This document shows positions 1 to 38,395 of a stretch of 64,000 nucleotides of DNA, piece after piece. This stretch comes from Candidatus Omnitrophota bacterium (GTDB lineage: Bacteria > Omnitrophota > Gorgyraeia > JAFGHF01): the NCBI GenBank assembly GCA_020341815.1, contig CP070837.1:311035-375034 (forward strand), in the 5' to 3' direction. The position numbers were made by a program, and so were the translations under genes. The stretch's first letter is position 1; the number at the start of each line of letters is the position of its first letter. Below the pieces are notes generated by a model, which searched no databases, was not told where the DNA came from, and was given only the letters and a program-made list of their open reading frames with translations.

Positions 1-30
1 AAAACACTCACAGAAGTCGGCAAAAAAACA

Positions 31-143
31 ATCACTGAAACCACTGAAAAGAAAGGAGACGCTGAAACCACTGAAGAGTAAACACTGAAACCACTGAAGT
101 TTTTTTCAGTGTTCTCAGTGCTATTAATTCAGTGCCCTCAGTG
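31..143. repeat. Family-1 repeat element, copy A: three direct CACTGAAACCACTGAA units, a T7 run, then two inverted CAGTGNNCTCAGTG units. Immediately upstream of rpsC.
   Basis: Direct reading. The same unit architecture recurs at 11165-11250, 34562-34626 and 63573-63678. Forms an imperfect long hairpin. Confidence 0.75.
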
Positions 144-151
144 TAACGAGA

Positions 152-838
152 ATGGGTCAGAAAGTTCACCCTTATGCATTAAGATTAGGCTATATAAAGA
201 ATTGGAAGTCGTCCTGGTTCTCCAAAAAGAACGATTTTCCAAAGCTTCTCCATGAAGATATTAAAATCCGCAAATATATAAAGAGTAGTTTTACCAATGC
301 GGGTATCTCCAGTATAGAAATTGAAAGGGCCTCGGGAAGGGTAAGGGTTATTCTGCATACTTCCAGGCCAGGCGTAATTATCGGCAGGCGAGGCGCCGAC
401 ATCGACCGGCTTCGAGACGAACTTCAGGATATAACGGGCAAAGAAGTCTTTATTGATATAAAAGAGGTTAAGAATCCCGCAATCGACGCCCAGCTTGTGG
501 CAGAGAATATAGCCTTTCAGCTGGAGAGGAGAGTAGCCTTCAGAAGGGCAATGAAGAAGGCTATTCAGATGGCTATGAATGCCGGAGCCGAGGGGATAAA
601 GATTGCCTGCCGGGGAAGATTGGGCGGAGCGGAGATGTCCAGAAGGGAAGGTTATCGCGAAGGAAAAATTCCCTTGCAGACTTTCCGGGCGGATATAGAT
701 TATGGATTTACCGAGGCAAGGACTGCTTACGGAAGCATTGGAGTTAAGGTTTGGACGTATAAAGGCGAAGTTCATCCAGAGAAATTAAAGGATAAAGATA
801 AAAATGGCGTTGATGCCGAAAAGAGTAAAATATCGTAA
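152..838 (+). CDS. rpsC: 30S ribosomal protein S3
   Basis: [13 protein letters not shown]... KH/S3 signature. Lies in the canonical S10 operon position before rplP. Confidence 0.95.
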
Positions 839-1217
839 ATACCAGAGAGGGACGCGTCGGGGACTCTCAACAAAAGCCTCTCGTGTCGCCTTTGGTGAAT
901 ACGGACTGCAGGCCCTGGAGAATGCCTGGTTGAGTAATACGCAGATTGAAGCGGCCAGGGTTTCTCTAACCAGACACCTGAGAGAAGCAGGCAAAGTCTG
1001 GGTCAGGATTTTTCCCGACAAGTCGGTAACCAAAAAACCCGCGGAAACAAGAATGGGCAAAGGTAAAGGCATGCCCGAGCACTGGGTTGCTGTAGTCAGG
1101 CGCGGACGCATTCTCTTTGAGCTGGAAGGCGTGCATGAAAATATAGCCCGCCAGGCCTTGAGGCTGGCGGCGCACAAAATGCCTTTTAGCACAAAGTTTG
1201 TCTCCCGCAAACGTTAG
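804..1217 (+). CDS. rplP: 50S ribosomal protein L16
   Basis: [16 protein letters not shown]... canonical L16 N-terminus. Overlaps the rpsC end. Confidence 0.95.
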
Positions 1218-1231
1218 GTACGGAGAAAAAA

Positions 1232-1447
1232 ATGAAGCCGAGCGAATTGAGAGAAAAGACCTCATCGGAACTGACGCAAAAGCTCCATTCTTTAAGAGAA
1301 GAATTATTTAATTTAAGATACCAGGCAAAAACAGGAAGGCTGGAGAAGCCCAGCCTTATCAGGAACATTAAAAGGGATATCGCCAGAATCAATACAATAA
1401 CCAAGGAAAAGAAGGATGCAGAAAGAGCGCAACAAAAGAAAAGTTAG
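1232..1447 (+). CDS. rpmC: 50S ribosomal protein L29
   Basis: 71 aa with [28 protein letters not shown], the L29 motif. Conserved order after rplP. Confidence 0.9.
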
Positions 1448-1673
1448 AAAAGGCACGGTTGTTAGCGACAAAATGGATAAGACCATTGTGGTAAGAGTAG
1501 AGAGGCTTACCAAACACCCGAAATACGGTCGTGTTATATGGCGTGCCAGCAAATTTAAGGTTCACGATCGAGAAAACCAAGCTAAGATGGGCGACAAAGT
1601 GCGGATAATGGAAACCCGCCCGCTTTCCAAAGAGAAAAGATGGCGGCTTATAGAAGTAGTATCTAGTCGCTAG
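1416..1673 (+). CDS. rpsQ: 30S ribosomal protein S17. The start could instead be the internal ATG near 1473 (MDKTIVV).
   Basis: [30 protein letters not shown], the S17 signature. Its stop TAG lies inside the family-2 repeat. Confidence 0.9.
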
Positions 1674-1776
1674 TATTTAGTCGTTAGTATTTGATATTTA
1701 GTAAAATAAAAAACAATAAAAAACTTTTAACTAGATACTAGATACAAGCGACCAGCGACTGTGAGGAGCGAAGCGA
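1657..1776. repeat. Family-2 repeat element, copy 1: direct TAGTATC/TAGTCGC 7-mers, an AT-rich core, then inverted CTAGATACTAGATACAAGCGAC units. Overlaps the rpsQ stop codon.
   Basis: Direct reading. Homologous copies at 47821-47910 and 62718-62810 share the ...AGTCGTTAGTAT...AGTAAAA...AACTAGATAC(T/C)AGATAC(A/T)AGCGAC(T/C)AGCGACT core. Confidence 0.75.
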
Positions 1777-1782
1777 CGAACA

Positions 1783-2151
1783 ATGATACAGATGCGCACA
1801 ATATTAGATGTAGCGGATAATACCGGAGCAAAACGGGCTTCATGTATCGGTGTAATAGGACGTTCGGGCAAAAGGTTTGCGGATATCGGAGATATTATCA
1901 GCTGCAATATTAAAGAGTCCACTCCTGACGCAGCGGTAAAGAAGGGTGAAGTCGTAAAGGCGGTCGTGGTGCGGACTAAAAGCCCCATCCATCGAGCGGA
2001 TGGCTCAAACCTGAAGTTCGACCGCAATGCCTGTGTAATTATCGATACCCAAATGAATCCGCGGGGAACAAGGATTTTCGGGCCTGTTGCCCGGGAGTTG
2101 AGGGATAAGAATTTTATGAAAATAATCTCTTTAGCGCCAGAGGCCATTTAA
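1783..2151 (+). CDS. rplN: 50S ribosomal protein L14
   Basis: [17 protein letters not shown]... canonical L14. Confidence 0.95.
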
Positions 2152-2155
2152 AGCT

Positions 2156-2470
2156 ATGCCAAAGATTAGAAAAAACGATACAGTAATCCTGCGCGCAGGA
2201 AAAGATAAAGGGAAAAAAGGCAAGGTCTTGGGTGTCTTCCCTAAGCGCAATCGCGCCATCGTGGAGGGTGTAAATTTTATAAAAAGGCACACCCGTAAAA
2301 CACGCCAGGACGCGCAGGGAGGAATTATCCAGAAAGAAGCGTCTTTGCATATTTCCAACCTGATGCCTTTCTGCAATAAATGCAATAAGCCCACAAGGAT
2401 TGGTTTTACCCTGTTGAAAGACCGTACCAAAGCAAGAATTTGCAAGAGGTGCCGTGAGGTCATAGGATGA
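2156..2470 (+). CDS. rplX: 50S ribosomal protein L24
   Basis: [23 protein letters not shown]..., the KOW/L24 signature. Follows rplN. Confidence 0.9.
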
Positions 2471-3018
2471 TGATTCCCAGGTTATTAGAAAAATATAAAA
2501 AAGACATTATTCCGCATATAATGCAGAAATTCGGCTTCAAAAACAGGCTTCAGGTCCCCCGCCTTAAAAAGATAGTCATAAATATGGGTCTGGGGGCCGC
2601 CGCGCACGATGCCAAACTTCTGGAACAGGCGACAGCCGATTTGGCTTTGATTACAGGGCAACGTCCGGTAATTACCAAGGCGCGTAAGGCTATTTCAAAT
2701 TTTAAGATAAGGAAGGGGTCCAAGCTCGGATGTAAAGTTACGCTTCGCGGACGCAGGATGTATGAATTTCTAGACCGCTTGGTTAATGTGGCCCTGCCCA
2801 GAATCAGAGACTTTCGGGGTTTTTCACAGAAGTCTTTCGATGGCCAGGGTAATTACTCTTTAGGGATAAACGAGCAGACTATTTTTCCGGAGATAGATAT
2901 TGATAAGACCCAGAGGCTTCAAGGTATGGATATTACTATAGTAACCACAACCGAAAACCAAGAGCTGGCGCGTGAGCTCTTAAAGGAATTCAACTTCCCT
3001 TTTATGAATCATGGCTAA
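2467..3018 (+). CDS. rplE: 50S ribosomal protein L5
   Basis: 183 aa with ...ITIVTTT... as in L5. Operon position after rplX. Confidence 0.9.
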
Positions 3019-3196
3019 AAAATCACTAATAGCGAAAGCGGAGAGAAAACCTAAATTCAAAGTCAGGAAATACCATCGCTGTAAAATTTGCGGAAGGCGC
3101 AGAGGATATATGCGCCGCTTTGGAATCTGTAGAATCTGTTTTCGTGAATTGGCCTGGCGCGGAGAAATTCCCGGTGTCACTAAGGCCAGTTGGTAA
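3011..3196 (+). CDS. rpsZ: 30S ribosomal protein S14, type Z (zinc-binding)
   Basis: 61 aa carrying the [23 protein letters not shown] zinc ribbon. Confidence 0.9.
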
Positions 3197-3215
3197 CAAG
3201 AGGAAGGCATAAAAG

Positions 3216-3614
3216 ATGAGCATAACTGATCCCTTAGCGGATATGTTCACGGTTATCCGCAATGCAGGAAACGCAAAGAAGGATAAGGCGGAATTTCCCT
3301 CATCCAAATTTAAAATAGAAATCCTGGATGTCCTGAAAAAAGAAGGATATATCAGAAATTATAAATATATCAGCGACAAAAAACAAGGTCGCTTACGCGT
3401 TTACTTAAGGTTTAAAAAAGAAAAAAAGCCGGCCATAACCATGATAAAACGTATCTCTAGACCGGGCCTCCGAGTCTATGTGTCAAAAGATGAGATTCCC
3501 CGGGTACTGCGGGGAATGGGCATGGCCATAATTTCTACCTCTTCCGGAATCCTCACCGACTCCCAGGCAAGAACGCAAGGCGTGGGTGGAGAGGTAATCT
3601 GTTATTTGTGGTAA
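3216..3614 (+). CDS. rpsH: 30S ribosomal protein S8
   Basis: MSITDPLADMFTVIRNA... S8 N-terminus. Conserved order. Confidence 0.92.
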   Translation: MSITDPLADMFTVIRNAGNAKKDKAEFPSSKFKIEILDVLKKEGYIRNYKYISDKKQGRLRVYLRFKKEKKPAITMIKRISRPGLRVYVSKDEIPRVLRGMGMAIISTSSGILTDSQARTQGVGGEVICYLW

Positions 3615-3626
3615 AGGAGTCAGAAG

Positions 3627-4163
3627 GTGTCCCGTATAGGAAAGAATCCAATAAATATTCCTGCAGGCGTCAAGGCCCAGGTCAGCGGTTCAAATATAAC
3701 CATCGAAGGGGCGAAAGGCAAGCTGAGCAGGGTTATCCATTCACGCATAAAAGTGCAGGTAAAAGATAATCAAATTGTAGTAACAAGGCCTACCAACTCA
3801 AACCAGGACAGGTCCTTGCATGGCTTAACGAGGAATCTTATTTATAATATGGTTAAAGGCGTAAGCGAAGGTTTTAACAAAGAGTTAGAAATAAAGGGTG
3901 TGGGTTTCCGTGCTCAAGCCAGCGGCAAATCCTTAAACCTTCAATTAGGATTTTCTCACCCGGTAGTTTTTACTATCCCTGAGGGTATTTCTATAGAGAC
4001 GCCTAAGCCTGTGCAGATTGTAATCAAAGGGATTGATAAGGAAAAGGTAGGCAGTGTAGCGGCAAAAATAAGGTCTTTTTATAAGCCTGAGCCTTATAAG
4101 GGTAAAGGAATCAGATATAAAGACGAATATGTCAGGCATAAAGTTGGTAAGGCTGTTGCTTAA
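3627..4163 (+). CDS. rplF: 50S ribosomal protein L6
   Basis: MSRIGKNPINIPAGV..., the L6 signature. Confidence 0.92.
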   Translation: MSRIGKNPINIPAGVKAQVSGSNITIEGAKGKLSRVIHSRIKVQVKDNQIVVTRPTNSNQDRSLHGLTRNLIYNMVKGVSEGFNKELEIKGVGFRAQASGKSLNLQLGFSHPVVFTIPEGISIETPKPVQIVIKGIDKEKVGSVAAKIRSFYKPEPYKGKGIRYKDEYVRHKVGKAVA

Positions 4164-4175
4164 TCAGGAAGACGA

Positions 4176-4538
4176 ATGGACGAGAAGAAAATAAAGCGAA
4201 TCAGAAGGCATAAAAGAATCCGCAGGAAAGTCTTTGGCACAAAGACTAAACCCAGACTTTGCGTATTTCGCAGTCTGAACAATATCTACGCCCAGCTCAT
4301 TGACGATATAAATGAGCGGACTCTATTATCAGTCTCTACGGCCAATAAGGATTTCAAGAAAAAAGTCAAAAGTTCCAGCGGAAATGCCAAGGCGGCTGCG
4401 GCCTTGGGCGAGGTTTTTGCCGAAGAGGCAAAGAAAAAAGGAATCAGCGAAGTCGTTTTTGACAGGGCAGGATTTCTTTATCATGGCAGGGTGCGCGCAT
4501 TGGCTGAGTCTGCGCGCAAGCACGGATTGAAATTTTAG
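4176..4538 (+). CDS. rplR: 50S ribosomal protein L18
   Basis: 120 aa with RLCVFRSLNNIYAQLID... and C-terminal ...FDRAGFLYHGRVRALAE, as in L18. Confidence 0.92.
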   Translation: MDEKKIKRIRRHKRIRRKVFGTKTKPRLCVFRSLNNIYAQLIDDINERTLLSVSTANKDFKKKVKSSSGNAKAAAALGEVFAEEAKKKGISEVVFDRAGFLYHGRVRALAESARKHGLKF

Positions 4539-4557
4539 GATTAAGGACTAAACCAAA

Positions 4558-5187
4558 ATGGCGGAGAAAAAATCACAAAAAAAAGCAGAAGAGACGAAAC
4601 AGGCCCGCCTAAAGACTGGCGGACAGGCCCGCCCGCCCTCGGCTTCGCCGAGAGGCGAGACGGCGAGGCAGGAAGAGCTGAAACAGCCGGAATTAATAGA
4701 AAAAGTAGTTGCTGTTAATCGCACTGCAAAAGTAGTTAAGGGTGGCCGGCGTTTCGCATTTAGCGCTTTGGTAGTGGTGGGGGATGCTTGCGGTAATCTG
4801 GGTTATGGCTTCGGCAAGGCGCGTGAAGTGGCTGAGGCCATTCGTAAAGGTTTAAATGCAGCCAAGAAACATATGTTTAAGGTTTCCTTAAAAGATACCA
4901 CCATTATTCATGAAATTGAAGGAAAGTTTAGCGCGGCAAGAGTTATTTTAAAGCCCGCCTCAAAAGGAACAGGGGTAATTGCCGGCGGGGCGGTGAGAGC
5001 GGTATGTGAAGCCGCGGGAATTAAGGATATATTAACTAAAAGTATTCGTTCCGATAATCCTATCAATGTAGCCAGGGCCGCTATCGAAGGTCTGCTTAGT
5101 CTGAAAACTGAAAAAACTCAAAGTCAAACTTTCATAGATGAGTCTGAGGCTGAGGCCGAAGAAGAGGCAACTGATGCGACTCAATGA
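4558..5187 (+). CDS. rpsE: 30S ribosomal protein S5, with a basic N-terminal and an acidic C-terminal extension
   Basis: Core [27 protein letters not shown] is S5. The 209 aa length is longer than a typical S5. Confidence 0.9.
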
Positions 5188-5617
5188 TTTATATCCCTCA
5201 AAAGGCACAAACAAGAAGCCCAAGCGCGTAGGAAGAGGTATAGGCTCCGGTCACGGCAAGACTTCCTGCCGGGGGCATAAAGGTCAAAAGGCCCGTTCCG
5301 GCAGAAAACTGCGACCCGGTTTCGAAGGAGGGCAGATGCCTATAGCGCGCAGGCTGCCAAAAAGGGGATTTAGAAATCGTTTCAAAAAAGAATATCAGAT
5401 AATCAATGTTGAGCAGTTGAATAAGTTCAGGAAAGATTCCACGATAACGCCTCAGATACTTCAGGATGAGGGTCTGATTAAGGATGCTCAAATGCCTATT
5501 AAGATTTTAGGCAAGGGAAAAATCGCAAAGGTATTAAATATTCAAACCCCCGCCATCTCCCAACAGGCAAAAGAGAAGATAGAGAAGGCCGGCGGAAAAG
5601 TAAGCACGGTATGTTAA
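5174..5617 (+). CDS. rplO: 50S ribosomal protein L15. The track ORF begins at 5138; I prefer the ATG at 5174.
   Basis: [11 protein letters not shown]...[21 protein letters not shown], the L15 signature. No L30 gene lies between rpsE and rplO. Confidence 0.88.
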
Positions 5618-6942
5618 AGGCTTTATCGAATATTTTTAAGATTCCGGATCTAAGACGAAGGGTGCTGTTTACTCTGGGTCTTTTTGCTGTTTATAGAATC
5701 GGCGCGTTTATTCCTACGCCGGGAATAGACAGCTCAAAACTGGCTCAATTTTTTGATAACATCGCTAAAAGCCAGGGCGGTACGCTCTTTGGAATAATGA
5801 ATATGTTTAGCGGCGGGGCGATGCGCAGACTTACGGTATTCGCCCTGGGGATTATGCCCTATATTTCGGCCTCAATTATTCTGCAGCTTTTGACTACGGT
5901 CGTGCCTTATCTGGAAAAATTAAGCAAAGAAGGCGAAATGGGCAGAAAGAAGATTATCCAGTATACCCGCTACGGAACTATCGTTCTTTCTATAATCCAG
6001 TCCTTTTTTGTGAGCGTGTGGCTGGAAAATCCGGCTCATTTTCAAGGCCTGCAGATAGTGCAGCTTCCCGGATGGCCTTTCAGGCTGCTGACAGTATTAA
6101 CATTGACTACGGGATGCGCTTTTATTATGTGGCTGGGAGAGCAAATCCAGGAATACGGAATAGGCAACGGAATTTCCCTGATTATTACCGTAGGAATTAT
6201 TTCCCGGCTGCCCAGTGCCCTGTATCAGGTTGGTTTCTATTTGAGAAGAGGACAGATGCAGCCTTTTATTCTGTTGCTTATGGTGATAATAATGCTGGCG
6301 GTAATCGTGGCGGTTATTCTGATTACCCAGGGCCAACGCAGGATACCGGTGCAATATGCCCGCAGGATTATCGGGCGCCGGGTTTACGGTGGACAGAGTA
6401 CCTATATCCCCTTACGGGTAAATCAGGCAGGTGTAATACCCATAATCTTTGCCCAGTCCATTATACTTTTTCCGGCAACTTTAGCCGGGCTTATGCCGTC
6501 TCCTTTTTTGCAGTCTTTAGCTGCTTCGCTTACGCAAGGGGGGCTTTTGTATTTTATTTTATATTCGGGGCTGATTATTTTCTTCAGTTATTTTTATACG
6601 GCAATAACGTTTAATCCTGTGGACGTAGCCGAAAATATGCGCAAATACGGAGGCTTTGTTCCCGGAATAAGGCCGGGAAAACCCACCGCTCAATATTTCG
6701 ATTTTATTTTAACGCGGATAACGCTTCCGGGAGCAATCTTTCTGGCAATAATTGCTATATTTCCGCAGTTTATCGGCGCATGGCTGCGTATTCCCTACCT
6801 GGTAGCTTCGTTTTTCGGCGGCACAGGGCTTTTGATTATGGTAGGTGTTGTGCTGGATACAATGAGACAGGTGGAATCGCATCTTCTGATGAGACATTAC
6901 GAAGGATTTATGAAAAAAGGGAAATTGAAAGGACGACGCTGA
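5611..6942 (+). CDS. secY: Preprotein translocase subunit SecY
   Basis: 443 aa, 10-TM profile with conserved SecY motifs (GIMPYISASII). Position after rplO. Confidence 0.95.
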   Translation: MLKALSNIFKIPDLRRRVLFTLGLFAVYRIGAFIPTPGIDSSKLAQFFDNIAKSQGGTLFGIMNMFSGGAMRRLTVFALGIMPYISASIILQLLTTVVPYLEKLSKEGEMGRKKIIQYTRYGTIVLSIIQSFFVSVWLENPAHFQGLQIVQLPGWPFRLLTVLTLTTGCAFIMWLGEQIQEYGIGNGISLIITVGIISRLPSALYQVGFYLRRGQMQPFILLLMVIIMLAVIVAVILITQGQRRIPVQYARRIIGRRVYGGQSTYIPLRVNQAGVIPIIFAQSIILFPATLAGLMPSPFLQSLAASLTQGGLLYFILYSGLIIFFSYFYTAITFNPVDVAENMRKYGGFVPGIRPGKPTAQYFDFILTRITLPGAIFLAIIAIFPQFIGAWLRIPYLVASFFGGTGLLIMVGVVLDTMRQVESHLLMRHYEGFMKKGKLKGRR

Positions 6943-6944
6943 TT

Positions 6945-7607
6945 ATGCGATTGGTGCTTTTGGGTCCACCCGGAGCAGGTAAAGGCACGCAGGCGAAGCT
7001 GCTTTCGGAAAAATTTAATATTCCGCATATCTCTACAGGGGATATGTTGCGCGATGAGGTGCGCGAAAAAACAGAGCTCGGGCATAAAGTTGCCGAATTT
7101 GTCAAAATCGGAGAATTGGTTCCGGACGATATCGTTATAAAGGTTGTTATACACAGATTAAGTAAACCCGATGCTAAAGCCGGATTTATCCTTGATGGTT
7201 TTCCGCGCACGCTTAAGCAGGCTGAAGAACTGAACAAGGCCCTAAGAGAGTTAAATATTTCTATTGACCGGGTTATTTATTTTCAAACAACACCCGAAGT
7301 GAGCATAAAGAGGCTTTCGGGAAGACGGGTTTGTGAAGGTTGCGGGGTAAACTTCCACCTGATTAATATGCCGCCTAAACATGAGGGAATTTGCGACTTT
7401 TGCGGCAAAGAACTCTTTTTAAGAGAAGACGATAAGGAAGAGACAGTAAAGAAAAGGCTGGAAATTTACCGGAAGGAAACAGTTAGTTTAATCGATTATT
7501 ATAAAAATAACGGAAGTTTAAGGGAAGTCTCCGGAGATTTAGAAGCGAACAAGTTAAATAGTCAACTCCTAAAGATGTTTGCCGAAGAAAAATTGATAGC
7601 TAAATGA
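6945..7607 (+). CDS. adk: Adenylate kinase (zinc-lid type). The track ORF at 6780 is a spurious 5' extension that overlaps secY.
   Basis: MRLVLLGPPGAGKGTQ P-loop. CEGCG...CDFCG zinc lid. ATG at 6945 lies 2 nt after the secY stop. Confidence 0.92.
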   Translation: MRLVLLGPPGAGKGTQAKLLSEKFNIPHISTGDMLRDEVREKTELGHKVAEFVKIGELVPDDIVIKVVIHRLSKPDAKAGFILDGFPRTLKQAEELNKALRELNISIDRVIYFQTTPEVSIKRLSGRRVCEGCGVNFHLINMPPKHEGICDFCGKELFLREDDKEETVKKRLEIYRKETVSLIDYYKNNGSLREVSGDLEANKLNSQLLKMFAEEKLIAK

Positions 7608-8353
7608 TAAAGGTTAAGAGTGCCGAAGAGATTGAGCTGATCAGGCGTGCCTGTGGGGTGGTAAGTGAGGTTATTAAACAGCTCAAGGTTTATGTACGAA
7701 CAGGCATTTCTACAAAACAACTGGATGAGCTGGCCAAGAAGTTGTTGAGGGAACTCGGAGCAACTTCGGCCTTTAAAGGATATCGGGGATACCCCGCTAA
7801 TATTTGCACCTCGGTTAATGAACAGGTTGTTCATGGTATTCCCGGCAGCCGCCGGCTCAAAGAAGGCGACATAATAAGCATAGACGTGGGGGCAAAGTTA
7901 AAGGGATATTTCGGAGATGCGGCCTGCACCTGGCCCGTAGGAAGGATTTCGCAAAAGGCCGATAAGCTTTTGTCTGTTGGCCGCGGCGCCCTGGCTGCAG
8001 GTATTGCTCAGGCTTGCGAAGGCAATCATCTTTTGGATATTTCCAGCCACATCCAATCCTATGTCGAATCTTCGGGGTGTTCGGTAGTGCGTAAGTTTGT
8101 AGGGCACGGGATCGGTTCTCAAATGCATGAAGAGCCGGAGATACCCAATTTCGGAAAAGCCGGGCTTGGGCCCCTTTTGAAGGCCGGAATGGTGCTGGCA
8201 ATTGAGCCTATGGTCAATGAAGGCACCTTCGAAGTCGAGATTTTGAAAGACAAGTGGACGGCAGTAACTAAAGACAGAAAACTTTCTGCGCATTTTGAAC
8301 ACACTGTCTGCGTAACTAAAGATAAACCGGAAGTTCTAACTGCCTGGGAGTAG
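7604..8353 (+). CDS. map: Methionine aminopeptidase type I
   Basis: 249 aa with MAP metal-ligand motifs (...[15 protein letters not shown]..., ...HGIG...). Conserved position after adk. Confidence 0.92.
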
Positions 8354-8358
8354 GTAAA

Positions 8359-8577
8359 ATGGCTAAAGAAGAACCCTTGGAAGTTACCGGCACGGTTACC
8401 GAATCTCTGCCCAACGCTACCTTTCGCGTAGAATTGGAAAACGGACATAAGATTCTCGCCCATATATCCGGAAAAATGAGAATGAACTTCATCAGAATTC
8501 TACCGGGAGATAAGGTAACCATAGAGATGTCGCCTTATGATTTAAGCAAAGGGCGAATAGTTTATCGGAATAAGTAA
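8359..8577 (+). CDS. infA: Translation initiation factor IF-1
   Basis: 72 aa with [31 protein letters not shown], the S1-like IF-1 signature. Confidence 0.95.
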
Positions 8578-8592
8578 GTGAGGACATAAATA

Positions 8593-8706
8593 ATGAAAGT
8601 TAAGGCCTCTATAAAAAGGATTTGCGAAAAGTGTAAGATTGTAAAACGCAAAGGCGTGCTGCGAGTAATTTGCGCCGACCCCAAACATAAACAAAGACAA
8701 GGATGA
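8593..8706 (+). CDS. rpmJ: 50S ribosomal protein L36 (not in the ORF track; translated by hand)
   Basis: My translation [37 protein letters not shown] gives 37 aa with the C-x2-C...C...H zinc ribbon. Canonical slot between infA and rpsM. Confidence 0.9.
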
Positions 8707-8712
8707 TTTGAT

Positions 8713-9117
8713 ATGCCCAGAATTATAGGTGTGGATATACCCAAGGAAAAAAGGATTGAGATAGCCCTTACCTATATCCATGGTATTGGTCGCTCCATCT
8801 CAAATAAATTATTGCGCCTTGCCGCAATTAATCCTGATATGCGCGCCAAGGATTTAACCGAGGAAGAAATTGCCAAATTGACCGGCGTGATTCAGAGAGA
8901 GGTCAAGGCAGAAGGAGATCTAAGAAGAGAACTTGCGCAAAATATCAAGCGACTGATTGAAATCGGTAGCTGGCGGGGTTTAAGGCACAAAAGAGGGCTT
9001 CCTGTGCGGGGCCAGAGAACCAGGACCAATGCCCGGACCCGAAAAGGTCCTCGTAAAACAATAGGCGCGATAAAAGCAAAGGCCGCCGCAGCTCCTGCTA
9101 AAGAAGCGGCTAAATAA
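8713..9117 (+). CDS. rpsM: 30S ribosomal protein S13
   Basis: [26 protein letters not shown]... S13. Confidence 0.95.
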
Positions 9118-9141
9118 ACCTACTAATATAAGAGGAAAAAA

Positions 9142-9537
9142 ATGGCTAAACCCCAACAAAGAACAAAAGTTAAAAAAAGGGTAATTCATGATCCCTCAGG
9201 TTGCATTGCCCACATCCAGGCAACTTTCAATAACACGATAATTACTATTACGGACAATAAAGGTGGCGCCATTAGCTGGGCCAGCAGCGGATTGGTCGGT
9301 TTTAAGGGTTCAAAGAAATCGACTCCCTTTGCCGCGCAACGAGCTGCCGAACATGTCGCCCGTAAAGCCAAGGAACTGGGAGTAAAACAGGTAGAGGTAT
9401 ATGTAAAAGGCCCCGGTTCAGGCAGAGAATCAGCCATTCGCGCCATACAGGCCGCAGGACTTTCTATCGTGGCAATAAGAGACGTTACTCCTATTCCGCA
9501 TAATGGCTGCAGGCCACCAAAACGCAGGAGAGTGTAA
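9142..9537 (+). CDS. rpsK: 30S ribosomal protein S11
   Basis: 131 aa with ...[17 protein letters not shown]... S11. Confidence 0.95.
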
Positions 9538-10163
9538 TGGCAAGATATAGAGGCGCACTTTGCCGGCTATGCAGAAGAGAAGGGACAAAGTTATTTCTTA
9601 AAGGCGAAAGGTGTATGACACCTAAATGTGCACTGACCAGAAGGTCTTATTCTCCCGGTCAACACGGCAAACGACGGGCTAAGCTTTCGGATTACGCCTT
9701 GCAGCTTCGGGAGAAACAAAAAGTGCGCAGGATTTACGGCATTAACGAGCATCAATTCAGATTATATTTTGAGAAAGCCGAAAAGACCAAGATGGTTACA
9801 GGAACAGTTCTATTGCAACTATTGGAAAGAAGACTGGATAACGTAATTTTTAGTTTAGGCTTTGCTGCTTCTCGCAGTCAGGCCAGACAAATAGTTAAAC
9901 ACAGATTTGTGTGTGTAAATTCAAGGCCGGTGGATATCCCCTCTTTTTTAATTAAAGAGAAGGATGTAATTTCCATCAAGAGCGATGAAAAGAAAAGAAA
10001 GCGGCTTCAAGAGATTATCAAGCTTACCAAAGATAGAAGCGTACCTGAATGGCTGAAGGTTGAGCCTGAAAGATTAGAGGGCACTGTTACAAGACTGCCC
10101 CAGAGGGAAGACATCCAATTTCCCATCCAGGAGCAGTTGATTGTAGAGCTGTATTCAAAGTAA
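9537..10163 (+). CDS. rpsD: 30S ribosomal protein S4
   Basis: [16 protein letters not shown]... zinc-type S4 N-terminus. Includes an S4 RNA-binding domain. Confidence 0.95.
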
Positions 10164-10176
10164 ACCAGGAGGCAAA

Positions 10177-11160
10177 ATGGGAGTTAAATGGAGAAATTTT
10201 GAAATGCCGAAGAGATTGGAATGTGATGAGTCCACATATTCTGATTCTTATGCCAAATTTATTGCGGAGCCTTTTGAACGAGGATATGGCATTACTGTCG
10301 GCAACTCTTTGCGAAGGATATTGATTTCTTCCATAGAGGGTAGTGCCGTCACTTCTGTTAAGATTGAAGGGGTATTGCACGAATTTTCCAGTATTCCCGG
10401 AGTTGTCGAAGATGTCCCTGAGATTATCTTAAATATCAAAAGGCTCATCTTGCGCGCACACACTAAAAACCCTAAGACCATTTTTATTAAAATAGAAAAG
10501 AAGGGAGACGTCAAGGCCCGGGATATCATTACGGATGAGACCGTTGAGGTCATCAATCCCGATTTGCACATCGCTACGCTTTCTAAAAATACGAAGTTTT
10601 ATGTGGAGATGGAAGTGGGGCGCGGCAGGGGTTATGTCTCTGCGGAAAAAAACAAAAAAGAATCCCATGCTCTGGGAGTCATACCTGTAGACTCGATATT
10701 TTCACCGGTAACAAGAGTAAATTTCCATGTGGAAAACACCCGCGTAGGGCAGATGACCGATTATGAGCGGCTTATTCTGGAGGTCTGGACCAATAAAAGC
10801 ATGAACCCTAAAGACAGTCTGCTTTATGCCTCTAACATACTGCAGAAACACCTGGAGGTATTTGTCGGCTTCGGTCAGTTGCCCGAAGAAGAGGTAGCCG
10901 AAGAAAGCGAAGAGGATCAGGAGCTCTATGAAAAATTAAGGCAGCCTATTTCCGAGCTTGAGCTTTCGGTAAGAAGCGTCAATTGCCTGGAGGAGGCAAA
11001 AATCAAGACTATCGGAGACCTGGTGCAGAAGACAGAGATGGAAATGCTCAAATACAGAAACTTTGGCAAAAAGTCTTTAACCGAGATCAACAATATTCTT
11101 AAATCGTTATCTTTGTCTTTAGGGATGAAAGTAGACACAAAGAGATTGAAGAAAAAATAA
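10177..11160 (+). CDS. rpoA: DNA-directed RNA polymerase alpha subunit
   Basis: 327 aa with NSLRRILISSIEG... and a C-terminal alphaCTD (ELSVRSVNCLEEAKIKTIGDL). Confidence 0.95.
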   Translation: MGVKWRNFEMPKRLECDESTYSDSYAKFIAEPFERGYGITVGNSLRRILISSIEGSAVTSVKIEGVLHEFSSIPGVVEDVPEIILNIKRLILRAHTKNPKTIFIKIEKKGDVKARDIITDETVEVINPDLHIATLSKNTKFYVEMEVGRGRGYVSAEKNKKESHALGVIPVDSIFSPVTRVNFHVENTRVGQMTDYERLILEVWTNKSMNPKDSLLYASNILQKHLEVFVGFGQLPEEEVAEESEEDQELYEKLRQPISELELSVRSVNCLEEAKIKTIGDLVQKTEMEMLKYRNFGKKSLTEINNILKSLSLSLGMKVDTKRLKKK

Positions 11161-11164
11161 GGAG

Positions 11165-11250
11165 ACACTGAAACCACTGAAAAATAATCACTGAAACCAC
11201 TGAAGTTTTTCTTTCAGTCTTCTCAGTGATAATTTCAGTCTTCTCAGTGA
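11165..11250. repeat. Family-1 repeat element, copy B: two direct CACTGAAACCACTGAA units, a T-run, then two inverted TTTCAGTCTTCTCAGTGAT units. Sits between rpoA and rplQ.
   Basis: Direct reading. Same unit as copies A, C and D. Confidence 0.75.
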
Positions 11251-11258
11251 TTACAAAA

Positions 11259-11786
11259 ATGCGCCATCGAAAATTTTCTAAAAGACGCATCAGTCGCAAA
11301 TATGGGCATCGCCGCTCTACATTGCGCAATCTGGTAATCAATCTTTTAAAATATCAAAAAATCAAGACTACGCCCGCTAAGGCACGTCTTGCGCAGTCTT
11401 CATTTGAACATTTGGTCTCTTTAGCCAAAAAAGACACGCTTCATTCGCGCAGACAGGCCTATAAACTGCTGGATAACAGGGCTGCGGTCTTGGAGCTCTT
11501 TTCACGAATCACTCCTTTATTTAAGGGGAAGACTTCAGGCTTTACCCGAATAATTCGCACCTCTTACAGGCACGGAGACGGCGCGCAATTAGTCTTTCTG
11601 GAACTTACAAATAAGTTGCCTAAGGTAAAGCCCCGCAAAGCTCCGCATGAGAAACCTAAGGCGGAAGTTAAAGAAAAGGAAGAGATAAAACCTAAAGAAA
11701 AGCTCAGGGCCCCTAAGAAATTGAAGCCGAAGAAATTTTTAGGAGGCTTACGCCGGCTATTTAAAAAGGAAAGAGATGCTCTGTGA
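11259..11786 (+). CDS. rplQ: 50S ribosomal protein L17 with a Lys/Pro-rich C-terminal extension of about 60 aa. The track ORF begins at 11226; I prefer the ATG at 11259.
   Basis: MRHRKFSKRRISRKYGHRRSTLRNL... canonical L17 start. Tail KVKPRKAPHEKPKAEVKEKEEIKPKEK... Confidence 0.88.
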   Translation: MRHRKFSKRRISRKYGHRRSTLRNLVINLLKYQKIKTTPAKARLAQSSFEHLVSLAKKDTLHSRRQAYKLLDNRAAVLELFSRITPLFKGKTSGFTRIIRTSYRHGDGAQLVFLELTNKLPKVKPRKAPHEKPKAEVKEKEEIKPKEKLRAPKKLKPKKFLGGLRRLFKKERDAL

Positions 11787-11901
11787 ACCCAGCCCTTCCA
11801 AATACCACGCCTTGCTATAATAGCTATGGATAAAAGCAATAGATAAAAGGAAGGATGGGGATAAAGGCTTGACATTATCAAGAAAGGAAGGGCTGGGTGA
11901 A
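11784..11901 (+). promoter_or_regulatory. Family-3 element, diverged copy 1. Runs from the rplQ stop codon TGA to the GTG start of the downstream aminotransferase. Closed by the inverted repeat ACCCAGCCCTTCC / GGAAGGGCTGGGT. Contains TGCTATAAT (extended -10-like) and TTGACA.
   Basis: Aligns end-to-end with 29353-29469 and 31021-31137. Shows a compensatory C>A / G>T change in the terminal stem relative to the other copies. Confidence 0.6.
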
Positions 11902-13063
11902 AATAGCCCGAAGAGTAACAGAAGTTGCTCCTTCGCTGACCCTGGAAATTACATCTTTGGCAAGAAAAATGAAAGAGCAGGGCGGAAAAATAGTTAATTT
12001 TGCCGCCGGAGAGCCGGATTCGGATACCCCCGAATATATAAAAAAGGCGGCAATAGAAGCTATCGAGCAAGGATTTACTAAATATACGCCCGCAGCAGGA
12101 TGGCCGAAGCTAAAAGAAGCTATATCTAAAAAGTTCAAAAAAGAGAATCAGCTAAGCTATTCCCCCGAACAAATCGTTGTCAGCTGCGGGGCGAAGCACG
12201 CCCTCTATAATATCCTGCAGGTCCTCTGCGAAAAAGAAGATGAAGTAATTATTGCCTCTCCCTACTGGGTAAGTTACCCTGAGATGGTAAAACTGGCAGG
12301 GGCAACCGCGCATATTGTGCAAACCCAACCCCAGAATCAGTTCAAATTAGATAAAAGATCATTAGCCTCCGCTATTACCAAAAAAACTAAAGCAGTTATT
12401 CTTAATAGCCCCGCAAACCCTACCGGCTCTGTCTATTCCCAGGATGAACTTGAGGAAATCTGCGCTCTGGCGGTTGAACGGAACTTTTATATAATAAGCG
12501 ACGAAATATATGAAAAATTTATTTTTGACGGAAAGAAACACATCTCTTGCGCCTCCCTGAATGAAGAGATTTACAGGCGCACTATAGTAGTCAATGGGGT
12601 ATCCAAAAGTTACTCTATGACCGGATGGAGAATCGGCTACCTGGCCTCACCAGATGAGAAAATAATCCAGGCAATAAAAAAACTACAAAGTCATTCTACC
12701 TCCAATCCCTGTTCAATTAGCCAAAAGGCCGCATATCAGGCTTTAGAGAAGACAGACAAAACCCAAATGCAAAAGATGCTGAAGAGCTTCCAGGAAAGAC
12801 GCGATTGCATGCTGAGGGGCTTGGATGAGATTTCCGGTTTATCTTATATAAAGCCGGAAGGCGCATTTTATGTATTTTGCGACATCTCTCAATTAAAACT
12901 GGACTCGATTACTTTTTGCCGAAAACTGCTTGAAGAGGCCGAAATAGCCGCTGTTCCGGGTGAGGCATTCGGTCGAGATGATTATATCCGTTTGAGTTTT
13001 GCTACAAGCAGGAATGAAATAGAAGAAGGCCTGCGCAGATTAAAGAAATGGGTTACACGATAG
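11897..13063 (+). CDS. Aspartate (or aspartate/prephenate) aminotransferase, class I. GTG start supplied by the family-3 element.
   Basis: Strong similarity in pattern to Thermus-type AspAT: NFAAGEPDSDTP, SPYWVSYPEMV, NSPANPTG, SKSYSMTGWRIGY (PLP lysine). Confidence 0.85.
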   Translation: MKIARRVTEVAPSLTLEITSLARKMKEQGGKIVNFAAGEPDSDTPEYIKKAAIEAIEQGFTKYTPAAGWPKLKEAISKKFKKENQLSYSPEQIVVSCGAKHALYNILQVLCEKEDEVIIASPYWVSYPEMVKLAGATAHIVQTQPQNQFKLDKRSLASAITKKTKAVILNSPANPTGSVYSQDELEEICALAVERNFYIISDEIYEKFIFDGKKHISCASLNEEIYRRTIVVNGVSKSYSMTGWRIGYLASPDEKIIQAIKKLQSHSTSNPCSISQKAAYQALEKTDKTQMQKMLKSFQERRDCMLRGLDEISGLSYIKPEGAFYVFCDISQLKLDSITFCRKLLEEAEIAAVPGEAFGRDDYIRLSFATSRNEIEEGLRRLKKWVTR

Positions 13064-17876: not shown

Positions 17877-19061
17877 ATGCACGAAGCAAACAGAATGAAA
17901 AGACTGCCTCTTTATCTTTTTACAATTATTGACCACTTAAAAGACGAAGCAAGAGAAAAGGGGATAGATATAGTGGATTTGGGTATGGGCAACCCCGACC
18001 AGCCCACCCCTAAACATATTATCGATGAATTATGCAAGCAGGCCCGGCTTCCTGAAAATCACCGCTATCCCCGTCCCAATGAACCGGCAGAGATAAAATT
18101 AAAAGAGGCTATTGCCAATTGGTATAAGGACAGGTTCAATGTAAACCTCAACCCCAAAACAGAAGTCTTACCCCTGATTGGCTCAAAGGAGGGCGTGGCT
18201 CATTTATCTTTGGCTTTTTTAAATCACGATGATATTGCTTTGGTTCCTTCACCGGCCTATCCTGTCCACTTCAACGGCGTAATTATGGCCGGCGGTATCC
18301 TTTACAATATCCCTATGACCGAAGAGAATGGTTTTAAGCCGGATTTAAGAAGCGTAAATGACAGCGTAGTTAAAATGGCAAAGATGTTATTCTTAAGCTA
18401 TCCTCACAATCCCACCACCAGCGTGGTGGATTTAAGCTTCTATGAGGATATTGCCCGCTGGGTGAAAAATAAAGATATTATTATTGCCAGCGACCTGGCC
18501 TATTCAGATATAGTATTTGATGATTACAAAACCCCCAGCATGTTGCAGGTAAAGGGGGTAAAAGAAAAGACCATTGAATTTCATACGCTTTCCAAGTCCT
18601 TTAATATGCCTGGTTGGCGTATAGGCTTTGCTGTGGGCAGCGAATCCATTCTGGCTTCCCTTGCCAAGACCAAAAGCTATATTGACTTCGGCATCTTTCG
18701 TCCCATTCAATACGCTGCGGTCAAGGCCTTGAGCAGTTCCCAGGACTGCGTGAAAAAGACCGTAGAGATTTACAGAAAAAGAAGAGACGTATTCGTGGAC
18801 GGCCTCAATAAAATCGGCTGGCCGACAAAGAAACCCAAAGCCACCTTTTATGTATGGACACGCATCCCTCTTAAATACGATGCCTTGACCTCAATGGAGT
18901 TTGCCGAGCTCCTGGTTAACGAGGCGGGCGTGGTAGTTGCTCCGGGAATCGGATTTGGCGAATACGGCGAGGGTTATGTCCGTTTTGCCCTGGTGGAAAA
19001 TGAACAGAGGCTTAAGCTGGCCATTAAACGCCTGGAAAAAGTCCTGGCCATGAAGCCCTGA
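17877..19061 (+). CDS. Class I/II PLP-dependent aminotransferase (AlaA/DapL-like). Specificity unknown.
   Basis: 394 aa with NPTT and SKSFNMPGWRIGF (PLP lysine) motifs. Confidence 0.75.
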   Translation: MHEANRMKRLPLYLFTIIDHLKDEAREKGIDIVDLGMGNPDQPTPKHIIDELCKQARLPENHRYPRPNEPAEIKLKEAIANWYKDRFNVNLNPKTEVLPLIGSKEGVAHLSLAFLNHDDIALVPSPAYPVHFNGVIMAGGILYNIPMTEENGFKPDLRSVNDSVVKMAKMLFLSYPHNPTTSVVDLSFYEDIARWVKNKDIIIASDLAYSDIVFDDYKTPSMLQVKGVKEKTIEFHTLSKSFNMPGWRIGFAVGSESILASLAKTKSYIDFGIFRPIQYAAVKALSSSQDCVKKTVEIYRKRRDVFVDGLNKIGWPTKKPKATFYVWTRIPLKYDALTSMEFAELLVNEAGVVVAPGIGFGEYGEGYVRFALVENEQRLKLAIKRLEKVLAMKP

Positions 19062-19083
19062 GTACGCTTAAAATAAGATTTCC

Positions 19084-19136
19084 CAAGGCGCCTCTAGATT
19101 ATGCTTGAGGCGCTTTCTCTTTGGCAATCTTTTTTG
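19084..19136 (+). terminator. Putative intrinsic terminator: stem AAGGCGCCTC / GAGGCGCTT followed by a T-rich tract
   Basis: A GC-rich inverted repeat immediately 3' of the aminotransferase stop, followed by TTCTCTTTGGCAATCTTTTTTG. Confidence 0.5.
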
Positions 19137-19202
19137 TTTGCCCAAATAGTCAATTTATGCTATATTAGAAAAGTTCACTGTCAAAAAAATAGAGGAGGGG
19201 CC

Positions 19203-19559
19203 ATGAAAAAGAGTATTTCTTTAGCGCTGGTGTTTGTTATGTCTTTATCTCTGTATAGTTGCGCAACCTACTTAACCAGGACGAATGAGATGCGCGATAA
19301 ATTGGCAACAATAAGGATTGGCATGTCCACGCTTCAGGTAATTGAGATTGCCGGCCAACCCCACAGCAAAGAAACCCTCTTATGGGAAGATGGAGAGCTG
19401 ATTCAATTTTACAAATATATCACAGAATATACTCTTGACGGACCCGTTCTTAATTCTGACCTGACACCGGTTTGCCTTAAACAAGATAAAGTAATCGGTA
19501 TAGGACACAAATTCTATAAAGAGCGGAAGAAAACCGCAAAAAAGATTCTGTATCCATAA
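19203..19559 (+). CDS. Hypothetical lipoprotein. The track ORF at 19101 is a 5' over-extension.
   Basis: AGAGGAGGGG RBS 3 nt before the ATG. MKKSISLALVFVMSLSLYSC signal peptide and lipobox. Confidence 0.65.
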   Translation: MKKSISLALVFVMSLSLYSCATYLTRTNEMRDKLATIRIGMSTLQVIEIAGQPHSKETLLWEDGELIQFYKYITEYTLDGPVLNSDLTPVCLKQDKVIGIGHKFYKERKKTAKKILYP

Positions 19560-29350: not shown

Positions 29351-29352
29351 AA

Positions 29353-29469
29353 TGAACCCCGCCCTTCCAAACATCACGCTTTGCATAATAGATATAGGCA
29401 AAGATAATAAAAGAAAGGGCGGAATAAAATTTAACCTTGGCCTTACGAAGAAAGGAAGGGCGGGGTGAA
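29353..29469 (+). promoter_or_regulatory. Family-3 element, copy 2. Runs from TGA just after the upstream stop to the GTG start of the downstream gene. Inverted repeat ACCCCGCCCTTCC / GGAAGGGCGGGGT.
   Basis: About 98% identical to 31021-31137. Ends AAGAAAGGAAGGGCGGGGTGAA, where the GTG is the start of ORF 29465. Confidence 0.7.
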
Positions 29470-31017: not shown

Positions 31018-31020
31018 GGG

Positions 31021-31137
31021 TGAACCCCGCCCTTCCAAATATCACGCTTTGCATAATAGATATAGGCAAAGATAATAAAAGAAAGGGCGGAATAAAATTT
31101 AACCTTGGCCTTACGAAGAAAGGAAGGGCGGGGTGAA
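31021..31137 (+). promoter_or_regulatory. Family-3 element, copy 3 (near-identical to copy 2). Runs from TGA after the aroQ stop to the GTG start of pepP.
   Basis: Direct alignment to 29353-29469. Ends GGAAGGGCGGGGTGAA with the GTG at 31133. Confidence 0.7.
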
Positions 31138-34562: not shown

Positions 34563-34626
34563 CACTGAGGACACTGAAAGAAAAATTTCAGTGGTTTCAG
34601 TGTAACAATTTCAGTGATTTCAGTGA
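34562..34626. repeat. Family-1 repeat element, copy C: one direct ACACTGAGGACACTGAAAG unit, an A/T spacer, then two inverted units (TCAGTGGTTTCAGTG and TCAGTGATTTCAGTGA). Begins at the accC stop codon.
   Basis: Direct reading. Same CACTGA(A/G)-based unit as copies A, B and D. Confidence 0.7.
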
Positions 34627-37773: not shown

Positions 37774-38395
37774 GTTATATGTAATTTTAGATGTTGATAT
37801 CGCTGCCTCATGCGGCAAAATAGAGGAAATAGCCCATAATGTTCTTTCCGCAGGAGCCGATATCCTGCAGTTAAGGGCAAAAGGTAAAAGCGATAGTGAG
37901 GTTTTGAAAATAGGCCGTTCTTTAGGAAATTTAGCCCGTAAAGAAAAGGCCTTATTTATCCTTAATGACCGTGTAGAGCTGGTAGATACTATCAATGCTG
38001 ATGGAGTGCATCTGGGTCAGGAGGATGCACCCTTCAGTGAGGCGCGCAGGGCCTTAGGCCCTAAAAGAATAATCGGTATCTCCACCCACAGCGTAGAAGA
38101 GGCGCACGAGGCAGAAAGACAAGGGGTAGATTATATCGCTATCGGACCGATATTTTCCACACAGACAAAACCGCAAAGTACTCCTCTGGGGCCTGAAATA
38201 ATTACAGAGATTAAGGACAAAGTTAAAATCCCTTTTCTGGCTGTGGGGGGCATAAATCTGGAAAACTCAAACCAAGTTTTAACCTGTGGCGCTCGGCGCA
38301 TTGCCGTCTGCAGGGCTATCATTAAAGCAAAGGACGTCTTTGGAACTACGGAGAAATTCAAACAAAGGCTAAACAACCCTACTTACACCTCGTAG
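37760..38395 (+). CDS. thiE: Thiamine-phosphate synthase (TTG start inferred)
   Basis: LYVILD...ADILQLRAKG...GVHLGQED...IGIS.H...GVDYIAIGPIF.T.TK, the TMP-TENI pattern. Confidence 0.82.
   Translation: MRDFRLYVILDVDIAASCGKIEEIAHNVLSAGADILQLRAKGKSDSEVLKIGRSLGNLARKEKALFILNDRVELVDTINADGVHLGQEDAPFSEARRALGPKRIIGISTHSVEEAHEAERQGVDYIAIGPIFSTQTKPQSTPLGPEIITEIKDKVKIPFLAVGGINLENSNQVLTCGARRIAVCRAIIKAKDVFGTTEKFKQRLNNPTYTS

Follow-up and report, generated by a model that had tools for sequence, protein, structure and literature searches.

Repetitive extragenic palindromic (REP) elements and the REP doublets forming hairpins (REPINs) are mobilized by RAYT proteins (Bertels & Rainey 2011, PMC3116915; Di Nocera et al. 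2013, PMC3733652). One end of the REP unit carries an unpaired tetranucleotide tag, GTAG or CGTC (PMC3733652), and in REPINs inverted doublets together with their spacer form a hairpin (PMC3116915). Direct repeats of the heptamer TAACTGA have been described in marine Beggiatoaceae, Cyanobacteria, and Bacteroidetes (MacGregor 2015, PMC4679880). Here, we analyzed a short palindromic element, built from the hexamer CACTGA and its reverse complement TCAGTG, which is present in four copies in a 64-kb stretch of contig CP070837.1 from a Candidatus Omnitrophota bacterium (referred to as the window); the copy between rpoA and rplQ is the studied feature. Further points of reference are the MITEs of bacteria (miniature inverted-repeat transposable elements), including Correia elements and Rickettsia palindromic elements (RPEs), and the multiple phased transposase-binding sites at the ends of Mu, Tn7, and IS21 and in the subterminal repeats of plant Ac and En/Spm. 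With moderate confidence, we regard the Omnitrophota elements as non-autonomous mobile palindromic DNA forming a "ladder" hairpin and behaving like MITEs and REPINs.

Reading the sequence confirmed all four copies of the original prediction, and a scan with the two-unit module CACTGAnnnCACTGA revealed no fifth locus in the window. Their coordinates and parts are as follows.

33 to 143, no strand assigned: copy 1, rplV 3' end/rpsC (module scan, fold, comparison with relatives); direct modules 33-47, 60-74, and 83-97, T-loop 99-105, inverted modules 106-120 and 129-143; predicted hairpin 59-144.
11166 to 11249, no strand assigned: copy 2, rpoA/rplQ (module scan, fold, relatives); direct modules 11166-11180 and 11189-11203, loop 11205-11213, inverted modules 11214-11228 and 11235-11249.
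34563 to 34625, no strand assigned, polarity opposite to copies 1 and 2: copy 3, accC/amaP (module scan, fold); direct module 34563-34577, a loop, inverted modules 34588-34602 and 34611-34625.
63573 to 63676, no strand assigned, polarity opposite to copies 1 and 2: copy 4, recO/glyS (module scan, fold); direct modules 63573-63587, 63593-63607, and 63617-63631, a loop, inverted modules 63639-63653 and 63662-63676.

The elements measure 63 to 111 nt, contain no open reading frame (ORF), and occur at 4 copies per 64 kb. Allowing up to 2 mismatches, CACTGAnnnCACTGA matched 23 times in the window, compared to 2.0 ± 1.4 times in shuffled sequences; with up to 1 mismatch there were 17 modules, all of them inside the four loci, and the clusters likewise held 29 of the 36 CACTGA/TCAGTG hexamers. 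A core pattern of direct module, tract, and inverted module matched at 4/4 loci and in 0/100 shuffles. The proposed two or three direct modules were found at loci 1 (3 direct plus 2 inverted), 2 (2 plus 2), and 4 (3 plus 2), whereas locus 3 has a single one (1 plus 2). In copy 2, both inverted modules carry the rare variant TCAGTC. The repeats are indeed periodic, as had been noted; their basic period is 9 nt (a hexamer and a 3-nt spacer) rather than about 8 to 9 nt, and the proposed 16-17-mer corresponds to a module of two units. Among 48 arrays, comprising the four of the window and arrays from loci fetched elsewhere, unit-to-unit distance was 9 nt in 136/198 cases, with 8 and 10 nt as minor variants.

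RNA folding of either strand yielded a long interrupted hairpin at 4/4 loci (z = −4 to −9), in agreement with the long imperfect hairpin postulated before, and DNA folding gave the same result. Because of the 9-nt period, and because the spacers of facing units are hardly complementary (36% of positions versus 29% by chance in the 48 arrays), the stem consists of 6-bp CACTGA/TCAGTG helices alternating with 3×3 internal loops. Within the 17 modules of the window, divergence from the consensus was 2.5% in hexamers and 43% in spacers (p = 2e-13), equivalent to an approximately 17-fold better conservation of the hexamers. The conserved property is the hexamer and its phasing, not the stability of the helix. 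Different loci also have sequence in common beyond the hexamers (core 40-mers lie within ∼4 mismatches) and the same arm asymmetry, with AAy spacers in one arm and GrN in the other. By loop and spacer type, two copies point one way and two the other, without strand bias. The earlier description "direct then inverted" is correct as to form, but gives no strand information since the reverse complement has the same form.

Like REPs and REPINs, the ladders are short, non-coding, high-copy extragenic sequences with inverted doublets and a hairpin in single-stranded DNA or mRNA; each array consists of direct units, a loop, and inverted units. They also lie mostly downstream of ORFs, are clustered and occasionally intragenic, and are non-autonomous, with a presumed reliance on an enzyme whose single-copy gene lies elsewhere. 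Unlike a REP unit, a self-folding imperfect palindrome of 20 to 40 bp, the CACTGA module is a tandem of two 9-nt units and no palindrome, and on its own the 17-nt sequence (CACTGAAACCACTGAAG or CACTGAGAACACTGAAA) forms no structure (0.0 kcal/mol). The four elements and the 10 nt on either side of each contain no GTAG, CTAC, or CGTC; the one GACG, at position 58, stems from a variant hexamer, CGCTGA. Arms of 2 to 5 phased hexamers with unpaired spacers are likewise unlike REPs, and the ladder hosts (Omnitrophota, Chloroflexota, Verrucomicrobiota, and Auribacterota) are largely outside the phyla for which REPs are described. With the TAACTGA repeats, the ladders have in common a short iterated unit with an ACTGA core containing stop codons, intergenic locations including ribosomal-protein operon junctions and positions by start codons, and a patchy cross-phylum spread suggestive of horizontal transfer, with no known mechanism or binding protein. 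TAACTGA arrays, in contrast, are perfect 7-nt direct repeats without hairpins, with one inverted case out of 170 in BOGUAY (PMC4679880), whereas the ladder has a period of 9 nt with a free 3-nt spacer and always mirrored arms.

Like MITEs, the ladders are dispersed insertions of <300 bp that do not code for protein, have inverted termini, and are polymorphic among related genomes; they can insert into ORF ends and thereby alter protein termini, and they supply stops or signals to their neighbors. They differ from MITEs in that the whole ladder is one palindrome of iterated 9-nt units rather than two terminal inverted repeats (TIRs) around unique sequence, lacks a clear target-site duplication and a cognate insertion sequence (none among the fetched loci), and has a hexamer conserved across phyla, while MITE families are usually lineage-restricted. 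Direct motif copies at one end and inverted ones at the other, with a conserved motif and free sequence between sites, are also a property of the Mu, Tn7, IS21, Ac, and En/Spm ends; the sites there are longer or farther apart, with kilobases of coding DNA between the two ends, whereas the ladder "ends" are separated by a loop of 1 to 25 nt. We know of no autonomous element matching the ladder ends. In behavior, the ladders are closest to REPINs and MITEs, without the REP-defining features, a demonstrated target-site duplication, or a parent insertion sequence.

The orthologous sites were compared with a close relative (92 to 94% identical DNA; contigs L050, L059, and L062, all from sample SRR24270831) and with distant relatives (L051-55, L060-61, and L063-64; RpoA 85 to 88% and RecO 80% identity). 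Their states are as follows.

rpoA/rplQ: window, 98-nt gap with element; L050, 15-nt gap without any unit; L051-L055, 6-nt gap.
accC/amaP: window, 80-nt gap with element and a new TAA; L062, 7-nt gap without any unit; distant relatives, empty.
rplV/rpsC: window, 3+2 modules; L050, a degenerate, smaller 1+1 version.
recO/glyS: window, filled; L059, filled, with whole modules near the apex differing; L060/L061, empty.

Presence/absence was sharp-edged at three of the junctions, namely rpoA/rplQ (L050), accC/amaP (L062), and recO/glyS (L060/61). At rplV/rpsC, the inner 44 nt (∼78-122) are window-specific and represent an extra hairpin nested in the older loop. Differences between close relatives thus consisted of presence/absence and of whole modules near the apex. 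The empty recO/glyS site reads CCCGAAAATTCTTGA, with the junction CCCGAAAA|TTCTTGA in L060/61, and the filled form CCCGAAAATT[TTTACACTGA...TCAGTGACA]AAAATTCTTGA. With AAAA|TT as the target and a T-run and an A-run as the termini of the element, this single clean filled/empty pair fits a duplication of 0 to 6 bp (AAAATT, or AAAA|TT without duplication). Target sites are rich in A/T and similar to the loops of the elements themselves, which would be a simple explanation of self-nesting. When the window is compared with L059, the same rare variants appear in complementary modules (CGCTGA/TCAGCG; CATTGA/TCAATA), which argues that modules arise as inverted pairs.

These comparisons showed that the elements are discrete palindromes without coding capacity, present in several copies and polymorphic as insertions, whose phased hexamers are conserved and to which no gene is linked; they were inserted as segments of ∼60 to 110 nt at A/T-rich positions, either at gene 3' ends or slightly within them, and in ribosome-binding site (RBS) spacers. 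Judged from the alignments, the four copies are recent insertions at gene ends. Two other families of small insertions, likewise window-specific in comparison with this relative, further supported mobility. Among public contigs, the only one with an identical RpoA breaks off within the element, which would be expected of a dispersed repeat. The proposed REP/MITE-like iterated element at gene 3' ends was therefore borne out: it is insertion-polymorphic, multi-copy, and dispersed over unrelated genes and several phyla. Absence elsewhere and lack of conservation in relatives had been considered to speak against such an element; the family does occur elsewhere, but relatives do not conserve the single copies, a pattern that speaks for mobility and not against the reality of the elements.

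Variation in the numbers of units and modules between close relatives could also be due to local simple-sequence arrays, in which a 9-nt repeat grows in place by replication slippage or template switching. This explanation gains from the identical spacers in the arrays of L003, L026, and L038, as found in young slippage products, from the variant common to both inverted modules of locus 2, which implies local duplication, and from the documented ACTGA-core heptamer arrays in other phyla, including ribosomal-protein operons (PMC4679880). It requires a seed, yet the two-armed hairpins at rpoA/rplQ and accC/amaP are opposed by zero units in the relative; moreover, module sequence, loop type, and arm asymmetry are common to different loci, and the arms are mirror-symmetric in unit spacing. 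A simple-sequence repeat was also rejected because the units share the hexamer only. As a full account, slippage is highly improbable; it may well lengthen and shorten arrays, but does not account for their appearance at new sites.

All four copies are located within plus-strand transcription units, at or ≤5 nt from the upstream stop codon. The flanking products S3, RpoA, L17, AccC, and RecO were verified, and glyS was identified via the gene call of the relative; the Asp23-like gene 3' of locus 3 had only a weak Asp23-family match, its homologues being named AmaP in the sources. Two single features at the ribosomal junctions are needed here.

86 to 88, plus strand: rplV stop codon TGA, from the CACTGA unit 83-88 (frame via the L050 gene call, PF00237, and alignment).
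11161 to 11165, plus strand: GGAGA, Shine-Dalgarno-like for rplQ, read from the sequence, directly 5' of the hairpin base.

Locus 1 lies before rpsC, as predicted, but is not purely intergenic: rplV reads through two of its modules and ends at the TGA of the third, so that the direct arm encodes an LKPLK-type, Lys-rich tail (...QSLKPLKRKETLKPLKSKH*). The stop codons claimed for the other loci were found. The TAA of rpoA is followed by GGAGA and then copy 2, the TAA of accC (34560-34562) directly abuts copy 3, leaving AccC 4 amino acids (aa) shorter than in L062, and the recO stop is the TGA (63576-63578) of the first unit in copy 4. At both ribosomal junctions, the hairpin separates a Shine-Dalgarno sequence from the ATG. 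For rplQ, whose ATG is at 11259, the distance from the 3' side of the copy 2 hairpin is 9 nt; at locus 1, the layout is the same (AAGGAGA 53-59, hairpin 59-144, rpsC ATG 152) and is also held in L050.

This arrangement is an argument for a host RNA element, acting as a 3'-exonuclease barrier or mRNA stabilizer, as a processing site (e.g., for RNase III), or by split-RBS translational coupling. With a hairpin that has AAGGAGA at its 5' foot and the ATG 7 to 9 nt past its 3' foot at rplV/rpsC and rpoA/rplQ, with strong RNA folds at every copy, and with many copies across phyla exactly adjoining stop codons, an RNA function would be conceivable, and REP elements downstream of ORFs have been proposed as RNA elements (PMC3733652). 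Polarity relative to the genes is 2:2, however, the antisense RNA forms the more stable fold at 3/4 loci, and the non-complementary spacers imply that helix stability is not the conserved feature. The same junctions function without the element in relatives 92 to 94% identical, so that it is not required there, and other phyla have copies between divergent genes and upstream of gene starts. The terminator, attenuator, and mRNA stabilizer roles suggested in the original prediction found no support for these reasons, and none of 22 terminator-like calls in positions 1-12500 overlapped loci 1 or 2. An intrinsic (Rho-independent) terminator was rejected, as the T-tract is located in the loop and not 3' of the stem. 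We consider a host RNA element unlikely, and the non-autonomous mobile palindrome remains the preferred reading.

To the flanks of 8 to 20 kb that were read at loci elsewhere, we now turn. The core pattern matched 48 times in 185,579 species-representative genomes, versus ∼0.15 expected by chance. Hosts were Anaerolineae and other Chloroflexota, Verrucomicrobiota (Akkermansiaceae, Luteolibacter), one Candidatus Auribacterota metagenome-assembled genome (MAG), and two MAGs unclassified or labeled "Thermoplasmatota," with single matches in Balneolaceae and Cryobacterium. Viral contigs gave no match, and in JGI metagenomes the lineage-specific core matched 3 times, always in other taxa, adding no further insertion sites for the lineage. 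All 48 had the architecture [CACTGAnnn]x2-5, loop, [nnnTCAGTG]x2-5, extending beyond the search pattern: the CACTGA arm was always first and the TCAGTG arm second, each with 2 to 5 units at mirrored spacing, around a loop of 1 to 25 nt. Termini were CACTGA/TCAGTG in all copies, often as GAAyCACTGA...TCAGTGrTTC in Chloroflexota and Verrucomicrobiota. In Verrucomicrobiota, the ladder is the core of a ∼200-nt palindrome with outer inverted termini of ∼19 nt, and several copies are located at a fixed short distance upstream of gene starts.

Copies were found between tandem, convergent, and divergent genes. Many abut stop codons exactly, with the TGA of the terminal unit as the stop of the neighboring gene (on both sides at L016). 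Six of the 48 genome-collection loci are at contig ends, and the only repeats common to loci were of 100 to 250 nt. Orthologous copies (L017/L023) persist between species ∼90% identical. The nearest 133 ORFs matched 191 Pfam families, none present in more than 2 ORFs. Gene calls in the GC-rich loci are crude, and 12 calls "inside ORF" in other phyla were rejected as intragenic in-frame insertions: they mostly reflect over-long ORFs in GC-rich DNA, in which the Pfam domains begin after the element, and L020 is a rearranged contig.

Conservation focused on hexamer and spacing instead of spacers or pairing, with the same hexamer, period, and arm polarity in distant phyla, might alternatively reflect a chromosomal protein-binding array which is not mobile, i.e., cooperative sites for a nucleoid-associated, partition-like, or regulatory protein subject to ordinary turnover. 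The persistence of L017/L023 and the fixed positions upstream of verrucomicrobial genes would suit such an array. Against it, the copies are complete insertions of 60 to 110 nt at unrelated junctions with common sequence beyond the hexamers, assemblies are broken as by dispersed repeats, neither a candidate protein nor a recurrent neighbor gene was found, and, at a 9-bp phasing, consecutive sites face different sides of the B-DNA helix. Nor are stray hexamers specifically avoided: outside the elements, 7 CACTGA were observed versus ∼30 expected from composition, but a Markov-4 model expects 9.3, and the hexamer ranks only ∼240th of 3648 in the avoidance test. A resemblance to parS was also rejected, because the unit, compared by eye, is not the 16-bp parS palindrome. 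We judge an immobile array quite unlikely, marginally below the RNA element in our estimation. It overlaps with the mobile-element reading, and the two are inseparable without identification of the protein. Because of the 2.5% versus 43% divergence, we think that a protein-binding array, the other option named in the original prediction, is part of the answer, presumably as a mobilization signal rather than as a regulator of the ribosomal operon.

Searches for known families and for a partner enzyme were negative. With Rfam 15, the window gave only a tRNA, both at gathering score and at E≤1, leaving the elements unmatched, and the elements of 12 loci from other phyla had no match either. In the papers that could be searched, family-specific strings of 14 to 15 nt had no match. 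In line with the original prediction, the unit thus matches no class that we can name. An attC site was rejected since the termini, compared by eye, do not fit RYYYAAC/GTTRRRY. No RAYT gene was present in the window or recurrent among the 133 ORFs flanking copies elsewhere, and no transposase or integrase was among the recurrent Pfam families of these ORFs. None of the fetched loci had a split array bracketing a gene, and no long repeats were common to loci.

Several observations weigh against a mobile element. No mobilizing enzyme was found in the window or beside any copy, and no autonomous element with the same ends among the fetched loci. The duplication length at recO is ambiguous (0 to 6 bp), the accC insertion lost ∼9 nt of target, and the rpoA junction is too diverged to read a target duplication. 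Flanking duplications of 20 to 60 bp are unlike the product of a simple cut-and-paste transposase: in L021 and L044 (Anaerolineae MAGs), where the element is at the 3' end of an N6-methylase-like gene (L021 1455-2350, L044 6351-6528), ∼60 bp of the methylase 3' coding end (...YELYGLTEEEIGVVEG) are duplicated on both sides of the element, and L045 has a 20-bp flanking direct duplication. As a signature of the family, such long duplications were rejected, being present in 2 to 3 of 48 copies and not in the other ∼45. In L021, the inverted arm additionally contains a nested 650-nt segment, flanked by duplicated TTCAGTGGGGTCAGTG, with a frameshifted DUF3800-like ORF (YVDETG...) which is not a transposase. 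Finally, strong hexamer conservation in old, possibly immobile copies (L017/L023) could mean that the host uses them.

Despite these points, we favor non-autonomous mobile palindromes, in which the hexamer array is probably a multi-site recognition signal for a putative mobilizing enzyme. A trans-acting, transposase-like protein encoded elsewhere would recognize the phased hexamers as multiple binding sites and insert the element at A-tract/T-tract targets. With such recognition, conservation would be expected for the hexamer and its spacing but not for the spacers or the stability of the helix. Mimicry of the target by the A/T-rich loop would cause new modules or copies to nest in the apex, building up the ladder, and slippage or unequal exchange between units would add variation. 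Non-pairing spacers may protect the ∼100-nt palindrome from hairpin-processing nucleases. Essential operons might tolerate the insertions for three reasons: a TGA stop is provided by the unit (or a TAA comes with it), another frame of the direct arm encodes a harmless Lys-rich LKPLK-type tail, and the folded hairpin would return the displaced Shine-Dalgarno sequence to the canonical 7 to 9 nt from the ATG.

Other small repeats were observed in the window and its relatives. A second periodic hairpin has a period of 7 nt, (TAGTnnn)x4-5, A-rich loop, (nnnACTA)x4-5, and a classical MITE of ∼115 nt has 17-bp TIRs (GTGAACCCCGCCCTTCC...GGAAGGGCGGGGTGAA). Their copies, without strand assignment, are as follows.

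1657-1745: 7-nt-period hairpin, intergenic, rpsQ/rplN.
47824-47915: 7-nt-period hairpin, intergenic, upstream of aroB.
62714-62804: 7-nt-period hairpin, intergenic, DUF502/recO.
29352-29466, 31020-31135, and 11783-11896: TIR MITE, two copies near-identical and one diverged.

Two of the 7-nt-period copies have no counterpart in the relative (62714-62804 in L059, 1657-1745 in L050), and a shorter version is present at the rpsQ/rplN junction of L052. At the corresponding sites, the 93% relative has none of the three TIR MITE copies; a related one is found 3' of rplQ in L054/L055, and copy 11783-11896 is located between GTGAA direct repeats. CTAG- and GTAC-containing hexamers are near-absent in the window (CCTAGG, ACCTAG, and CGTACG, 0 observed versus 25 to 30 expected from base composition); family-2 hairpins are nevertheless built from CTAG-containing units. 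The N-terminal region of rpsE (4600-4668) has a 69-nt in-frame, G+C-rich, partly palindromic insertion, resembling in-frame intragenic RPEs, and S5 has 209 aa in the window versus 186 aa in L050. Positions 38363-38446 are a lineage-specific 84-nt intergenic insertion containing the palindrome CCTACTTACACCTCGTAGGTGTAAGTA, and at L059 9200-9380 a 179-nt segment with two hairpins stands opposite a 28-nt gap in the window. In L054, a 443-nt non-coding gap (19002-19446) has two TTATCCACA-type DnaA-box-like motifs and may be a replication-origin-related region.

Relatives without CACTGA elements carry hairpins of the same design with other cores, namely (TAGGnnn)x4/(nnnCCTA)x4, GTGTAAn/TTACAC, and TGACAAA/TTTGTCA, at the following positions.

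L054 260-354, 2658-2814, and 12861-12943: other-core hairpins, in gaps of the same ribosomal and aconitase region.
L051 12687-12859: other-core hairpin, same region.

Because of these, periodic-arm hairpins seem to be a general class in Omnitrophota. That the CACTGA ladder and the other Omnitrophota periodic-arm hairpins (4- to 6-nt cores) together form an unrecognized class of prokaryotic mobile elements, with its own cross-phylum enzyme and growth by loop nesting, is a tentative and rather doubtful extension. If true, the signal would consist of phased, very short motifs on a hairpin or cruciform scaffold, and the enzyme would have crossed phylum boundaries (Chloroflexota, phyla of the PVC group, and others) and would represent a novel system of transposition or recombination. 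The colonization of Shine-Dalgarno-to-ATG spacers in essential ribosomal operons would thereby be explained as well.

The ladders would add a distinct cross-phylum family to the miniature repeats of bacteria (REP/REPIN, bacterial interspersed mosaic elements, MITE, and RPE), and their phased hexamers, unpaired spacers, and self-nesting point to a mode of recognition unlike REP/RAYT. They break short-read assemblies of uncultured lineages and alter protein C termini (L22, AccC, and RecO here). Since presence/absence differs between genomes ∼93% identical, they would be sensitive strain markers for Omnitrophota populations. In the most conserved operon of bacteria, they represent a natural experiment, in which translation initiation copes with a start codon set apart from its Shine-Dalgarno sequence by an 84-nt hairpin (98-nt gap).

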